From Escherichia coli (GTDB lineage: Bacteria; Pseudomonadota; Gammaproteobacteria; Enterobacterales; Enterobacteriaceae): 64,000 nt of DNA. The notes beneath the pieces are model-generated. The model searched no databases. It saw nothing but the letters and a program-made list of their open reading frames with translations, and was not told the DNA's origin. The stretch is taken from assembly GCF_044324875.1 (NCBI RefSeq), contig NZ_CP172188.1; one strand, given 5' to 3'. The translations under genes were made by a program, and so were the position numbers. The first letter of the stretch is position 1. Every line of letters starts with the position of its first letter. Positions 10,004-62,160 of the stretch are shown here, in pieces.

Positions 10004-11212
10004 ATGAGTCAACAAACTGATACTTCTAATCTGGAAATCATCTCAGCCGCGATTGAAACGCTGCGGACACAGATCGCCCTTATTCAAAAGCGGAATCCGG
10101 GGGATGACCTGTCCAGACGGCTACATGAGAGCGTCATTGCCACTACTGATAACCTGGTCGCGGAGATCAACCAGCTACTTGAGGAAGGGACGGTTGATTA
10201 CAACAAGCTGGTGGATCAGTTTGAGGAATATCAACAAGCCGTTAATGATGGCTTGATCCGTTTTTCACAAGTCACAGGCGTATCAGCGACAGTTGAAAGT
10301 CTTGGCAATGCTGTTAATCAATTTGCCGCGAATATGCGTAGTGAGATCGGCAATCTGGAAGCGCGTCTTGAACAGGCAAACACACTGCGCAAATCCGCAG
10401 AAGCCGATTTGAGTCGTTACAAAAAAGACTATCCAGCCAGTCTGTCAAAACGACTGGATGTTGCGGAGAAGGATAACCGTGCGCTGAAAAGAGAGCGTCG
10501 GGAACTAAAAGAGCGTTTAACAGAGCTGAATCAGCAATGCATTAAGTATCAAGGCGAAGGCGTCACACTGCGTAAAAAGTTAGCAGCAGCGCAGAACATT
10601 ATTGAAACGCTGAAACGAGAGTGCTCACAGCTTGGTCATGATCTGAACCGCGCTTGTGGTATGGGACAAAGGCCAGAGACATTCCCGCTCATGTATGACG
10701 GGGTGGATGCTATTGCCTATATCCATGAGTACCCGCATGGTCTGGTTGCGGAGACTGGTCAGCGTGGTGAAGCTCTGTTGACGGCTAATTACCATCAACA
10801 AATTAGAACCAACCGCCTGCTGACGATGGATGTGATCCCATCAGTATGGGGAACGCCGCTTTACTATCGCCTGCCCGGCTTCGAAACGGACTGGAATACC
10901 GATATAGACGAATGCCTGGCAGATAAAATTATGGCGTACCTGGAGACTGATTTCCCGCGCCTGCATCGCCGGATTATGGACTCTAAGGATGCGCCGATCG
11001 ATGAATTGAAAATGCGCCCAGAGACGTTGGAAGCTATCAAACAGACTGCGTTTGATACCGTATTCAGCGTGGCCTGTATCCCAAGTAGTTTTCATGAAAG
11101 CATCCCCTTTATGCAGGGCGACCGTCGTCAAGAAATTATTGATGCCTGCCGGGTGTGGGCTAACGAATGGGACAAGAAGAATGGGGGCGTAGAAGATCTT
11201 TATGGGAAATAA
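10004..11212 (+). CDS. hypothetical protein with N-terminal coiled-coil region
   Basis: ORF 9920..11212; most likely start ATG 10004 (GGGAA RBS-like 7 nt upstream); heptad-like charged N-terminal third. Confidence 0.55.
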   Translation: MSQQTDTSNLEIISAAIETLRTQIALIQKRNPGDDLSRRLHESVIATTDNLVAEINQLLEEGTVDYNKLVDQFEEYQQAVNDGLIRFSQVTGVSATVESLGNAVNQFAANMRSEIGNLEARLEQANTLRKSAEADLSRYKKDYPASLSKRLDVAEKDNRALKRERRELKERLTELNQQCIKYQGEGVTLRKKLAAAQNIIETLKRECSQLGHDLNRACGMGQRPETFPLMYDGVDAIAYIHEYPHGLVAETGQRGEALLTANYHQQIRTNRLLTMDVIPSVWGTPLYYRLPGFETDWNTDIDECLADKIMAYLETDFPRLHRRIMDSKDAPIDELKMRPETLEAIKQTAFDTVFSVACIPSSFHESIPFMQGDRRQEIIDACRVWANEWDKKNGGVEDLYGK

Positions 11213-11213
11213 T

Positions 11214-11231
11214 ATGTTAGAAATCTAATTT
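11214..11231 (+). promoter_or_regulatory. operator-like motif copy (ATGTTAGAAATCTAATTT)
   Basis: Starts 2 nt after stop of the 10004..11212 CDS. Confidence 0.45.
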
Positions 11232-11368
11232 CATCAAACGAACATATTGATTGTGAGAGTAACTTAACTTAGAATTTTCCTTGCTGGTGGAGCGTTGCCA
11301 CATTTCGCTTGCTGGGCTTGATAGTCACTTATTGGTTGTTGTTCGCCCACCAGCAAATAACAAATTAA

Positions 11369-11385
11369 AGTGTTAGAAAATTACA
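11369..11385 (+). promoter_or_regulatory. operator-like motif copy (AGTGTTAGAAAATTACA)
   Basis: TGTTAGAAAA core at the start of the long non-coding tRNA region. Confidence 0.4.
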
Positions 11386-11967
11386 TGCATACAGGGACTC
11401 GCTTTGGCACCGAGCAAGCCAAAGTTCAGCAGGTTTAGTGCGTAAAGTGGTTTCAGAGAGAGCACTTTACGGAGTAAACAACAAGACATGTTGAGCCACG
11501 GAAGGTCTTTTTAAGATGTTCATTGATGATGGTCCGGCAGAGAGTAACGGGACTCGCCGCATCGAATCATCATCAATGCACATCCTCAACATTAAGGAGG
11601 CATAGGGATTTTTTTGTGGCGATTACCTTTTGCCCTAAGTCTCCTTAATGTTGCGGTAATGCACCTATGCGGATGCGGCCTTGCATTGTGTCTTGAAAGA
11701 ATGGGGTAAGGCCGGGGATATCCCCAGGGGGAGGCACCCCCGCTGCAACGAACAGCCACAGACGGCAGTCGAGTGATGGAAACGTGCAAAGACTTTAAAC
11801 CTCGTTACGGCTGGCGTGGCAAACGCGACAACCGAGACAGAGCGGTGACGGGCGGAGAGAGTGCCGCATCAAGAAAGAAGCCGACTTGTGATCCCTTTCT
11901 GCGGGCATTTGAAAGTGAATCCAGCTCAGGCAGTCGGCTTCTTTCTTGTGTGAGATGTAGCGTATTT

Positions 11968-11992
11968 GCCCATCTTCGGGTGGGCTTTTTTA
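11968..11992 (+). terminator. rho-independent terminator-like hairpin
   Basis: GCCCATCTTCGGGTGGGC followed by TTTTTT; no credible CDS upstream, so may terminate a non-coding transcript. Confidence 0.45.
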
Positions 11993-12451
11993 GGGTTTTC
12001 GTCATGGTTAGCGACTTTGCGGCGGTTTAGAACCCGACCATTAAAGTAAATGCAAACGATGATCTGATGATGGTAGCGGCCTAAGAAGCCTGACGCCACG
12101 GGGTATGAGTCGTCCCCCGTCAAAAAATCGACCGCAGAGTGTCCCCGTCTGTGTATTAGGGAACGGGGAGGCATAACAGGCAAGGGCGCTGGTGTGATTA
12201 ACCAGATGAATGAGAAGGGTCAGGTCTTTCTGGTCAGCGCCCTTACCTGTTACGTCCCTCCCGCGTAACAGCCATTGATTAATGGCTTTCTGGGATAACA
12301 TCCTACTACGGGTATATCCCGTCATGCTGAAGGCGCTAATCACGCTGGAAGCCAGGGTTGTGCATCCCCTGTTACCGAATTGCAGCCAGGGCGCGGTGCG
12401 CCGAAAAGCATACGGAGGTGGAAGCCCTCGCCGGAGACGTACCCGGCAAGT

Positions 12452-12528
12452 GATGGTGTAGCTCAGTAGGATAGAGCAGCAGCCTTCTAAGCTGTCGGTC
12501 GGTGGTTCGAATCCACCCACCATCGCCA
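12452..12528 (+). tRNA. tRNA-Arg (anticodon TCT)
   Basis: 77 nt; 7-bp acceptor stem GATGGTG/CACCATC, D-arm GCTC..GAGC, anticodon loop CTTCTAA, T-arm GGTGG TTCGAAT CCACC, encoded CCA. Confidence 0.9.
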
Positions 12529-12530
12529 AT

Positions 12531-12606
12531 GCCGGTTTAGCTCAGTTGGTAGAGCGCCTGCCTTGTAAGCAGGATGTCAGCGGTTCGAGTCCGTTAACCG
12601 GCACCA
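12531..12606 (+). tRNA. tRNA-Thr (anticodon TGT)
   Basis: 76 nt; acceptor GCCGGTT/AACCGGC, anticodon loop CTTGTAA, T-loop TTCGAGT, encoded CCA; P1 also carries a tRNA-Thr. Confidence 0.9.
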
Positions 12607-12608
12607 AC

Positions 12609-12694
12609 ACAACAGGTAAGGGTATTTTGCGACGTCGGAGATCGCCGTGCTTGGCAGAGGGTTCGAATCCCTACGAAGTACCCTTACCGTTGTG
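12609..12694 (+). other. tRNA-like remnant / structured element: 15-16 bp stem enclosing a T-loop-like GGTTCGAATCC
   Basis: ACAACAGGTAAGGGTA ... TACCCTTACCGTTGTG inverted repeat; no canonical D or anticodon arm identifiable. Confidence 0.25.
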
Positions 12695-13071
12695 ATGAAG
12701 TGCAGCTCTTTGAAGCAACCAGAAGATAAGCATCTGGCTTCACAACATAAACCGCAGGAACGACCAATAAACGGTAGTCCGTATGGAGAATACCCCGTTG
12801 AGGAAGAGGCCTGGCCGGAACCGTAACCGGCACTACAACGTTGAGAACACTGACGTAACGGGGTCATATCCCAATCTACGAATAAATGTTGCGTTGCAGC
12901 GTGACAACCAGTGTTCTCAACGTTGTGGTGGATTCGCAGACTGATGCGATAGCTTTCTTGGATGTTAGGGAAATGCGGCCGCAAACCTTCCCTTTCGCGA
13001 GCGGTGATCGTCCGTAGTCCTAATTGGCTGCACCGTATGCCGGAGATTCAGTACCGGCCACCACAACGGCC

Positions 13072-13158
13072 GGAGAGTAGGGAGCATGGTGCTCAAGCGG
13101 TCTTGAAAACCGTCCCATTGCGCAAGCGATGATGGTTCGATTCCATTACTCTCCGCCA
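13072..13158 (+). tRNA. atypical type-II (long variable arm) tRNA-like gene, anticodon possibly TGA (Ser-like); may be a pseudo-tRNA
   Basis: 87 nt; acceptor GGAGAGT/ACTCTCC, anticodon stem-loop GCGGT-CTTGAAA-ACCGT, T-arm GATGG TTCGATT CCATT, discriminator G + CCA; D-arm irregular. Confidence 0.4.
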
Positions 13159-13561
13159 TCGCAACGTTAAGAGTATTTGGCTAATTAAGCGAATGCCGGA
13201 AGCAGAACCGGATCAACAAATGCGTACAGGCGTCATCGCCGCCCAGCCAGCCAAGTGCTCTTACCATTGCGGTGAATGCGGCTAAGCGCACGCGGAACAG
13301 TTAAAACAATCCTGCTTACTAAACATCCCGGCGTTAATTGTTAACTGGTTAACGTCACCTGGAGGCACCAGGCACCGCAATCTAACAGCAATGGCGTTTT
13401 GTCTTAAAAGGTAGCTGCAAGTGATGGATTTTTGGGCCTTTGCCGATAAGAACCCTGGTTGGACATTTTTATTTCTGCTGGTGGTTGCATATGGGATCGA
13501 GCAAGCGGCAAAAGCCTTACGCGGTTCTGGCAAAAAGCGTAAGCGGAATTAACAGTAATCT

Positions 13562-13637
13562 GGCCCTTTAGCTCAGTGGTTAGAGCTGGCGACTCATAAT
13601 CGCACGGTCACCGGTTCAAGTCCGGTAGGGGCCACCA
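13562..13637 (+). tRNA. tRNA with CAT anticodon, most likely tRNA-Ile2 (lysidine type) rather than elongator Met
   Basis: 76 nt; GGCCCTT acceptor, anticodon loop CTCATAA, T-loop TTCAAGT; resembles enterobacterial ileX-type tRNA as I recall it; P1 also encodes a tRNA-Ile. Confidence 0.85.
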
Positions 13638-14090
13638 TATTTGGTTGTAACACGGCGTATGGCACATGCGTCGTTAGCGGTCTGGTGACGTTATAGGGGT
13701 TACCTTTTCCCCTAGCTCAGGCAACAAACCAGGTAGCCGGAATGTGCAAGCCCCGTTCATATCGTCGGACCGAGGACTCACCATCCTGGCGATTCGGTGT
13801 GACAGCCGGAAGAGTACGGCGCACAACAGGAAAAGGCGTTTAATTAACGTGAGCGCCGTTTCCGTTGTGGTAATTGCGGCTATGCGCTCGTGACGAAGCC
13901 ATTTTCATTCACTACGTTCTGATAAGTGACGTCGCCAGGAGTGGCTAACCTGGCAGGTGGAGTCACCACCGCCACAACTCCTTTCAATTCATCATATAGC
14001 CGCTCAGGCTGTAACCCTTAATTAATACGAAGTTTCGACATCTCTATCGGTTTAACCGAGGGATGGTCGCGCGTGTAAAAAGGAGACGTT

Positions 14091-38139: not shown

Positions 38140-38430
38140 GGCATTATCGTGGGGTATATTTCTACGGCACCTTAGAAAAACGGGTGCCGGGATTGGAACC
38201 CCGGATAATGCAAAAGGCGACACAGACGCCGAAAGCGTCTTTTCTTGTGTCATGCCATCGCACAGCCATACGTAGCGTTTAGCTCAGAGATCAATGGTAG
38301 TGCTGGCTGGGCTGCCGAAAGGCAGGCCGGTTCCCTTTTGCGCCGGTAGTTCCAACCCAGTCAGTGCTACCGCCATTGAGATTGGAACCTCACGCGGTAG
38401 CTCCTTAAATTAGCAAAAGGAGGCTGCCAA
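38140..38430 (+). ncRNA. candidate c4-like antisense RNA / leader region of immunity module A
   Basis: Structured leader upstream of the icd-like gene: direct repeats GATTGGAACC (38192, 38383) and a partly complementary GTTCCAACC (38346); hairpin GACGCCGAAAGCGTC + T-run near 38223. Confidence 0.3.
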
Positions 38431-61899: not shown

Positions 61900-62160
61900 T
61901 TCAGGCTTATATTCACGCCGTTGCAGCAAATTCTGCGACCGGGTTTAGCAGCCTGAATGTACATGCGGACAACCGCAGATATCCGATATTGCGGTATTTT
62001 TGTGTCCGTAAAACCATGTTACGCCCGAATTATGGTGGGGCGTGATGGGGAGGCTTCGGCCTGCTGGTTTCATGTACGCCAGTCTGCTAACCCCGTCACG
62101 TCCTGCCACCCGTTTAGCAGCGGGTAGCAGGTTGTTAAACCTGTACATGAGGCCGTAACT
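61900..62160 (+). ncRNA. candidate c4-like antisense RNA locus of immunity module B
   Basis: Paired elements a=TTTAGCAG and b=GTACATG occur at 61945/61958 and again at 62112/62141; complements (CATGTAC at 62066, CTGCTAA at 62085) lie between in reversed order. Confidence 0.35.

Follow-up and report, generated by a model that had tools for sequence, protein, structure and literature searches.

The tRNA-Ser(UGA) gene of a P1/P7/D6-type phage-plasmid owes its irregular appearance to an 8/4 cloverleaf

What kind of gene lies at the 87-nt element starting at position 13072 of a 64,000-nucleotide stretch of the Escherichia coli contig NZ_CP172188.1 (assembly GCF_044324875.1), where tRNA-like features are combined with a body that appears irregular? 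This stretch, hereafter the window, is part of a phage-plasmid of the P1/P7/D6 type. The first-pass annotation, made from the letters alone, had proposed an atypical type-II tRNA gene with a Ser(UGA)-like anticodon on a phage genome, or possibly a pseudo-tRNA. Here we report that the element is a real, conserved phage-plasmid tRNA-Ser(UGA) gene that has not decayed, and that its odd look stems from a rare, already described tRNA shape, the 8/4 cloverleaf, in which an 8-bp acceptor stem is combined with a 4-bp T stem. The anticodon and the type-II character had been recognised correctly in the first pass, the 8/4 architecture had not.

Identity of the gene

Scoring by ARAGORN, which had been suggested as a check, calls a tRNA-Ser with the anticodon tga at 13072-13158 on the plus strand, 87 nt long and with an encoded CCA end. 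The proposal of an atypical type-II tRNA gene with a Ser(UGA) anticodon was thus borne out at its exact coordinates. The existence of the gene is already known, since it is annotated as tRNA-Ser in RefSeq and in the record of phage D6: PGAP/RefSeq labels identical or nearly identical plasmid copies tRNA-Ser, and the D6 GenBank record already remarks on an 'apparent UGA Serine anticodon', with the amino acid not called by tRNAscan-SE. Furthermore, a serine tRNA is listed for a D6-like Salmonella plasmid (PMC6799933), and phage P7 has the sequence without annotation.

In a permissive Rfam scan (1.5-kb search), the best clan match of the gene was the model for the selenocysteine tRNA, tRNA-Sec (RF01852), with 46.6 bits and E = 7.8e-8, which is 0.4 bits below the gathering score of that model (47 bits). 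This near-threshold match speaks for a selenocysteine-type or recoding tRNA, in which case SelA or SelB would act on it or a codon would be recoded. Indeed, the likeness to tRNA-Sec (selC) comprises the 8-bp acceptor stem, the long variable arm, G73, a short D loop on a long D stem and, as predicted for the window gene, initial serylation by SerRS. However, tRNA-Sec has in bacteria an 8/5 acceptor/T helix of 13 bp, a 6-bp D stem with a 4-nt loop and the anticodon UCA, which reads the stop codon UGA, whereas the window gene has an 8/4 helix of 12 bp, a 5-bp D stem with a 3-nt loop and the anticodon UGA, which reads the serine codon UCA. We consider a selenocysteine or recoding role extremely improbable.

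An 8/4 cloverleaf and its conservation

The gene can be folded into a complete cloverleaf with four arms (Table 1). Its anticodon loop has 7 nt including U33, its T loop conforms to TTCRANT, its D loop contains GG, and its discriminator precedes CCA. In the first pass, the acceptor stem and T-arm had been described as canonical. The acceptor strands GGAGAGT/ACTCTCC, the T loop TTCGATT, the discriminator G and the CCA are all present, but the arrangement is 8/4 and not 7/5, as T76 (13147) is the partner of A8 (13079), and the four pairs of ATGG/CCAT form the T stem. Likewise, the D arm that had been called irregular is unusual, yet it is a regular and very compact hairpin (GAGCA-UGG-UGCUC). The Ser(UGA)-like anticodon arm GCGGT-CTTGAAA-ACCGT is present as proposed. 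The variable region, on the other hand, is not built around the palindrome TTGCGCAA; this palindrome is a by-product, formed by the top of the variable-arm hairpin CAUUGC-GCAA-GCGAUG, which adjoins the T stem without a linker.

In the 7/5 model drawn by ARAGORN, a single nucleotide serves as spacer and the D stem is a poor one of 3 bp; the gene looks irregular because this model is forced on an 8/4 body. The minimum free energy fold of the single sequence contains no cloverleaf and is mildly better than shuffles (z = -2.97); therefore, it was not taken as evidence.

Table 1. Parts of the 8/4 cloverleaf and features of the surrounding tRNA region, in window coordinates
Feature	Position	Strand	Basis or remark
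tRNA-Ser(UGA) gene	13072..13158	+	ARAGORN; Rfam tRNA-Sec match; RefSeq and D6 copies annotated
Acceptor stem, 5' strand, 8 nt, GGAGAGTA (GGAGAGUA)	13072..13079	+	sequence, covariation, RNAalifold
Linker GG, 2 nt, between acceptor 5' strand and D arm		+	sequence
D arm: 5-bp stem GAGCA/TGCTC, 3-nt loop TGG (G18 G19 equivalents)	13082..13094	+	covariation
Linker AA between D arm and anticodon arm		+	sequence
Anticodon arm: 5-bp stem GCGGT/ACCGT, loop CTTGAAA	13097..13113	+	ARAGORN (anticodon at position 33), covariation
Anticodon TGA	13104-13106	+	U33 and A36-A37-A38 present
Linker CC between anticodon arm and variable arm		+	sequence
Variable arm, 16 nt: 6-bp stem CATTGC/GCGATG, GCAA tetraloop (GNRA-type)	13116..13131	+	covariation
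T arm: 4-bp stem ATGG/CCAT, T loop TTCGATT	13132..13146	+	covariation, RNAalifold
Acceptor stem, 3' strand, 8 nt, TACTCTCC (UACUCUCC)	13147-13154	+	pairs with 13072..13079
Discriminator G73 (13155) and encoded CCA (13156-13158)	13155..13158	+	sequence
tRNA-Ser block with about 95 nt of 3' flank	13066..13253	+	in P7, D6 and the window; unrelated upl region in P1
tRNA cluster	12452..13637	+	ARAGORN; Rfam; RefSeq annotation of pGF4-B (99.9% identical here)
tRNA-Arg(UCU)	12452-12528	+	ARAGORN
tRNA-Thr(UGU)	12531-12606	+	ARAGORN
tRNA-Ile2, CAU anticodon	13562-13637	+	ARAGORN; Ile2 label from annotation in relatives
Strong intrinsic terminator, GCCCATCTTCGGGTGGGC then TTTTTT	about 11965-11990		about 460 nt upstream of the tRNA cluster

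For a comparison with relatives, homologues were collected by BLAST against GenBank phages and by a pattern scan of IMG/VR. The IMG/VR pattern fixed GGAG, G9, the T loop with GG/CC stem pairs, one T-stem nucleotide and CTCC; positions 8 and 76 were left free, and the selection was blind to 8:76 pairing. Every ARAGORN Ser call with an early anticodon position was kept, resulting in 44 distinct sequences in a MAFFT alignment (A1), in which counts of cells overstate the number of independent events due to kinship by descent. Across A1, 91.8% of the cells of the whole 8/4 structure are paired, and 18 of its 25 pairs show double changes. The covariation score of 0.531, compared to 0.162 in shuffles, was reached by none of 500 shuffles, and slid registers all remained at or below 0.142.

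Column 83 of the alignment is claimed by both cloverleaf models. As partner of the eighth acceptor pair (8:83), it forms AU in 26 sequences, GC in 10, UG in 2, and CG and UA in 1 each, with 14 double changes; despite the shared descent, five pair types at this position need several independent changes. The four sequences without this pair (c12, c18, c19 and c50) have U8 or C8 and resemble ordinary 7/5 tRNAs caught by the pattern. As partner of the rival fifth T-stem pair (67:83), the same column forms GU (25 sequences), GC (14) or AU (1), never changes together with its partner, and loses the pair in c30, c31, c52 and c84, all four of which retain 8:83. The 7/5 cloverleaf as drawn by ARAGORN was therefore rejected. 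Moreover, column 67, the nucleotide before the T stem, is paired in all 44 sequences as part of the closing pair of the variable arm (47:67; CG 41, UA 2, UG 1).

The remaining stems are supported as well. RNAalifold, which was given no structure, returned all four arms, with an 8-bp acceptor stem, a 4-bp D stem, a 5-bp anticodon stem and a 4-bp T stem, and for the homologue of E. coli phage PJNS034, ARAGORN itself draws the 8/4 form. Each of the four outer pairs of the D stem shows double changes in A1, with variants as diverse as GAGC/GCTC, GGGC/GCCC, GCTC/GAGC, GTCA/TGAC and GCTA/TAGC, and a fifth pair (16:20; AU 22, CG 5, GU 3 among the 44 sequences) is supported, leaving a 3-nt D loop. All five pairs of the anticodon stem covary. 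A sixth anticodon-stem pair (27:45) was also considered and found to be unsupported, as it is unpaired in 35 of 44 sequences and occupied by A and C in the window gene. Even near-identical copies (c22, c46, c48 and c85) differ by changes that preserve the structure, for example C-G to U-A in the variable arm of c48 and G-U to A-U at the base of the anticodon stem of c22. Throughout the relatives, the anticodon is a serine anticodon, be it UGA, CGA, GGA or AGA. We conclude that the 8/4 fold is under selection in this tRNA-Ser family.

Two further phage tRNAs are worth describing alongside this family. The IMG/VR contig L095 encodes at 1632-1715 a tRNA with a GUA (Tyr) anticodon, discriminator A, the same kind of compact D arm (CUACA-AGG-UGUGG) and an A8 able to pair with U76. 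Judging from these letters, it may be an 8/4 tRNA-Tyr, and the design may perhaps extend beyond Ser and His. The 8/4 member of the Streptomyces phage ToriToki (L009, 584-667) has, according to ARAGORN, the anticodon AGA in a loop CUAGAAA, which is unusual among bacterial serine tRNAs, and its neighbouring Ser(GCU) tRNA is likewise drawn by ARAGORN with a 4-bp T stem.

Relatives, spread and genomic setting

The closest known kind is the (8/4) tRNA-Ser, which Mukai et al. (Nucleic Acids Res 2017, PMC5389517) described as a subgroup within the (8/4) allo-tRNAs. With this subgroup, the window gene shares the 8-bp acceptor and 4-bp T stem (a 12-bp helix), the Ser identity set of a long variable arm and G73 (U73 in some relatives), a location in phage tRNA clusters and a compact, tRNA-Sec-like D arm with a long stem and a very short loop, as well as the serine anticodon that sets the subgroup apart from other allo-tRNAs. 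Mukai et al. found their (8/4) tRNA-Ser in phages, proteobacteria and rumen Clostridia as near-threshold 'false positive' matches of the tRNA-Sec model, and the window gene behaves in the same way. There are also differences: the D loop usually has 3 nt here, compared to a tetraloop in the published description, and the anticodon stem has the ordinary 5 bp, compared to more than 5 bp stated for allo-tRNAs in general. Furthermore, the phage examples of Mukai et al. are metagenomic marine and alpha-proteobacterial phages, whereas the present lineage belongs to enterobacterial phage-plasmids and coliphages. In the literature searched, we found nothing that links the (8/4) tRNA-Ser with coliphages or phage-plasmids, the comparison excluding the supplementary sequences of Mukai et al., and neither an 8/4 assignment of this gene nor a report of 8/4 prevalence in enterobacterial phages.

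With the canonical type-II tRNAs, E. coli serT and the tRNA-Ser of phage T4, the window gene has in common the anticodon, the identical anticodon loop CUUGAAA, the long variable arm, G73 and the pairs G1-C and G2-C; the CCA is encoded in serT as well. However, serT and T4 tRNA-Ser have the 7/5 form with U8 G9, and their D arm combines a short stem with a large loop; in the window gene, A8 is paired with U76, the T stem has 4 bp and the D arm is 13 nt long. The experimentally studied T4 tRNA-Ser, which we considered as a member of the 8/4 family, was rejected for the same reason, being a canonical 7/5 tRNA.

The gene is widespread. Over 12400-13700, the window is 99.9% identical to E. coli plasmids such as pGF4-B, 96% to phage D6 and 94% to P7. 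A 111-nt query around the gene matches 562 PLSDB plasmids from Escherichia, Klebsiella, Salmonella and Shigella, 551 of which are predicted to be non-mobilisable; among the matches listed, most are about 90 kb (P1/D6-like) or about 110 kb (SSU5-like). The 87-nt gene itself was found in 330 of 5426 complete E. coli genomes (about 6%), with 333 of 335 places on plasmids, and for all E. coli genome matches listed, the PGAP label is tRNA-Ser. Homologues in GenBank come from P7, D6, a Klebsiella SSU5-like phage-plasmid, rV5-like Vequintavirus phages, and T5-like and T4-like Klebsiella phages, as well as from Acinetobacter Saclayvirus, Streptomyces phages and E. coli phage PJNS034.

P1 itself does not carry the gene. 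Its homology to the window runs via the plp region and a leader hairpin to about 13065 and resumes at about 13254, with the unrelated upl region in between. The possibility that the upl region is a decayed copy was rejected, as the local alignment score was 12 compared to a shuffle mean of 13.5. In rV5-like phages, a segment comprising the tRNA and its 3' flank (window 13072-13249) matches at 83.5%. Since the block missing from P1 coincides almost exactly with the segment shared with rV5-like phages, the comparison suggests that virulent phages and phage-plasmids have exchanged a small module containing the tRNA.

The cluster that contains the gene resembles that of P1 (trnA Asn, trnT Thr and trnI Ile2, in the C1-controlled ban operon) in genome position, flanks, tRNA-Thr and tRNA-Ile2, while it differs in the presence of tRNA-Ser, which P7 and D6 carry in the same form, in having Arg(UCU) instead of Asn(GUU), and in the lack of tciA/tciB. 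No match to a P1-type C1 operator was found in the window, and the only promoter-like site before the cluster in a simple scan was a weak 9/12 match at 11247-11275. Due to the strong terminator upstream of the cluster (Table 1), the tRNAs need either read-through or a promoter of their own, a clear example of which was not found by the simple scan. A permissive Rfam scan of 11200-12460 returned nothing meaningful.

Several other features of this region were observed. The first tRNA of the cluster is Arg(UCU) in the window, compared to Asn(GUU) in P1, P7 and D6, and RefSeq plasmids with the former version are annotated tRNA-Arg. The flanks, acceptor stem and D arm of the two versions are alike, while the anticodon arm, the variable loop and part of the T arm differ, which looks like an internal replacement that would have switched the identity of the tRNA. 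Right after tRNA-Thr, at 12606-12695, an orphan perfect T arm (AGGGTTCGAATCCCT, 12658-12672) lies within long inverted repeats (ACAACAGGTAAGGGTA ... TACCCTTACCGTTGT). This piece is common to D6, internally different in P7 and called by no tRNA finder. It is antisense inside an open reading frame (ORF) on the minus strand (12577-12984) that is 98% identical to the P1 'Plp, putative lipoprotein'. Because reverse translation of the T arm gives the 'RRDSNP' of its product, the plp ORF may be spurious, lying over tRNA debris.

The spacer further contains three copies of a unit composed of a hairpin and CACAAC/CTACAAC, at 12722-12749, 12812-12838 and 13041-13068 (ccagaagataagcatctggcttcacaac, ggccggaaccgtaaccggcactacaac and ccggagattcagtaccggccaccacaac), the third of which immediately precedes tRNA-Ser. 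Similar motifs, CAACACAAC and TCGCAAC, are located after tRNA-Thr and tRNA-Ser. Such units may be remnants of tRNA 3' ends, or they may serve as signals for processing; the spacer that contains them is almost unchanged in P7 and D6. A long inverted repeat at 12834-12927, with 18-nt arms (ACAACGTTGAGAACACTG / CAGTGTTCTCAACGTTGT) and a loop of about 56 nt, surfaced only through meaningless matches to microRNA models.

Between tRNA-Ser and tRNA-Ile2, the region 13268-13379 has a sub-threshold match to STnc100, a gammaproteobacterial small RNA model (35.7 vs 47 bits, E = 9.8e-6), and is partly conserved in P1, P7 and D6. While tciA/terB and tciB sit between these two tRNAs in P7 and D6, they are absent from window positions 13159-13561, where all that is left is a small ORF (about 13421-13552), labelled hypothetical protein in pGF4-B. 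Farther away, the window contains two C4 antisense RNA genes, at 38167-38377 and 61907-62113 (76.7 and 71.7 bits), one with isrK just upstream and the other with a c4-a1b1 target site. Two separate C4 genes imply two immI-type immunity loci in one element.

Function and significance

The gene probably encodes a functional phage-borne tRNA-Ser(UGA) in an 8/4 cloverleaf that tops up the supply for A-ending codons. Among its intact parts are the anticodon-loop nucleotides U33 and A36-A37-A38, the D-loop GG, the T loop, G73 and the CCA. We propose that the tRNA would be transcribed together with the neighbouring tRNAs of the P1/D6-type cluster and trimmed by host RNases, CCA addition being unnecessary because the CCA is encoded. 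Host SerRS would then serylate it via the long variable arm, G73 and the acceptor pairs G1-C, G2-C and A3-U, and EF-Tu would deliver the charged tRNA, which is expected because the coaxial acceptor/T helix retains the standard 12 bp (8 + 4). It would decode UCA, and the other UCN codons too if U34 is modified as in the host. Other tRNAs of this kind provide a precedent: (8/4) tRNA-Ser is known from phages, and in E. coli, allo-tRNAs of the 8/4 and 9/3 types with Ser identity undergo processing, are charged with serine and reach the ribosome through EF-Tu, the 8/4 ones having been shown to fold and to be used in translation. SerRS accepts 8/4 bodies, since what it reads is the long variable arm together with the discriminator (PMC5389517). 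The 8/4 shape itself would be the mark of a tRNA-Ser lineage in circulation among phages, and the copy described here would have entered the P7/D6 branch of the P1-like phage-plasmids as the small module that is also present in rV5-like phages.

The codon use of the phage-plasmid is consistent with codon supplementation. All four tRNAs of the cluster read A-ending codons, and these are 1.7-4.8 times more common in the window ORFs than in a 50-kb sample of E. coli K-12: per 1000 codons, the values for window and sample are 13.7 and 6.2 for TCA, 7.2 and 1.5 for AGA, 14.2 and 8.6 for ACA, and 12.8 and 3.2 for ATA. The codon of the gene, UCA, is thus about twice as frequent in phage genes as in E. 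coli. During phage gene expression, tRNA-Ser and its cluster partners Arg(UCU), Thr(UGU) and Ile2(CAU) would jointly boost the supply for A-ending codons.

Several points weigh against a functional, codon-supplementing tRNA. The codon-usage argument is a correlation, obtained with crudely called window ORFs and a host sample of 46 genes. The lack of the gene in P1 implies that it is dispensable for a P1-type phage. For this gene, the general tRNA model RF00005 gave no match at its gathering score (29 bits), while the other three tRNAs of the cluster reach 65-75 bits with this model. In A1, the invariance of GGAG...CTCC and of the T loop is imposed by the search pattern and carries no information, and the second T-stem pair (69:81) is non-paired in 14 of 44 sequences, many with a U-U opposition. 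Finally, the D6 reference copy (L002, 2172-2258) has A12 changed to C in comparison to the window and P7, which results in a C-U mismatch in the D stem. This copy could represent a slightly impaired allele or a sequencing error.

Some of these points would fit a decaying or non-functional pseudo-tRNA that persists only through its conserved non-coding surroundings, as would the lack of an amino-acid call by tRNAscan-SE recorded by the D6 annotators, the failure of the general Rfam model at its threshold, the absence from P1 and the presence of tRNA debris in the spacer, such as the orphan T arm. However, decay would not account for the covariation in every stem across distant phages, for the structure-preserving substitutions between near-identical copies or for the intact positions listed above. 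Hundreds of phage-plasmids, as well as virulent phages unrelated to them, have copies, every stem shows compensatory changes, and RefSeq consistently applies the tRNA-Ser label; the pseudo-tRNA option raised in the first pass was therefore discarded as an identification, and a non-functional state is very unlikely. The repeated hairpin-CACAAC units and other structured pieces of the spacer suggest extensive RNA processing nearby, and the gene might accordingly be a structured RNA with a non-decoding role, for example as a signal for the processing or punctuation of a polycistronic transcript, as a primer, or as a regulatory decoy that captures a tRNA-binding protein. Yet a structural signal would need neither the serine anticodon that is kept family-wide nor the conserved long variable arm, G73 or U73 and 12-bp acceptor/T helix, and we regard a non-decoding role as highly improbable.

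A different benefit, in line with the link to tRNA-targeting defences suggested in the first pass, would be provided by a spare tRNA against defence systems. In this scenario, the altered body (no U8, a triloop D arm and an 8-bp acceptor stem) would resist a nuclease or modifying toxin that hits the host tRNA-Ser or type-II tRNAs, and the phage would keep translating after an effector of the host or a competitor has destroyed the host copy. The spread of the same unusual tRNA, as a small module, over unrelated phage families and two types of phage-plasmids fits a selectable accessory function. Moreover, phage tRNAs are known to neutralise defences that target tRNAs, PARIS and retron effectors among them (PMC11464382; PMC11555353; PMC10264068), with known cases for Lys and Tyr tRNAs, and mycobacterial VapC toxins are known to attack serine tRNAs whose anticodon is NGA (PMC10264068). 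On the other hand, the anticodon loop CUUGAAA is that of serT, which leaves no room for the documented escape by mutation of this loop. In the literature searched, no defence of enterobacteria directed at tRNA-Ser was found, and Ser is not among the tRNAs cut by the bacterial Schlafen studied, which are those for Lys, Met, Ala, Val, Phe and Ile. The fit to codon usage already accounts for the presence of the gene. An anti-defence role appears unlikely. Its more specific form, in which the 8/4 body with its triloop D arm would be an escape from a putative enterobacterial effector that acts on the body of host type-II tRNAs or tRNA-Ser (acceptor stem, D arm or elbow) and not on the anticodon loop, is likewise unlikely. 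If true, it would explain the spread of the module over P1/D6-like and SSU5-like phage-plasmids and rV5-, T5-, T4-like and Acinetobacter phages.

For the codon-supplementing phage tRNA that we favour, the implications concern both annotation and biology. Gene finders stumble on this tRNA-Ser gene because it belongs to the rare 8/4 class of tRNAs, and its case is a warning that the general tRNA covariance model misses the 8/4 family. With the gene in about 6% of complete E. coli genomes, the 8/4 class proves to be common, and no curiosity, among the well-studied phages and phage-plasmids of enterobacteria. P7/D6-type lysogens, rV5-like phages and E. coli would thereby offer a tractable system in which to study the natural role of 8/4 tRNAs, and the genes could serve as natural, E. 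coli-compatible 8/4 scaffolds for genetic-code engineering.

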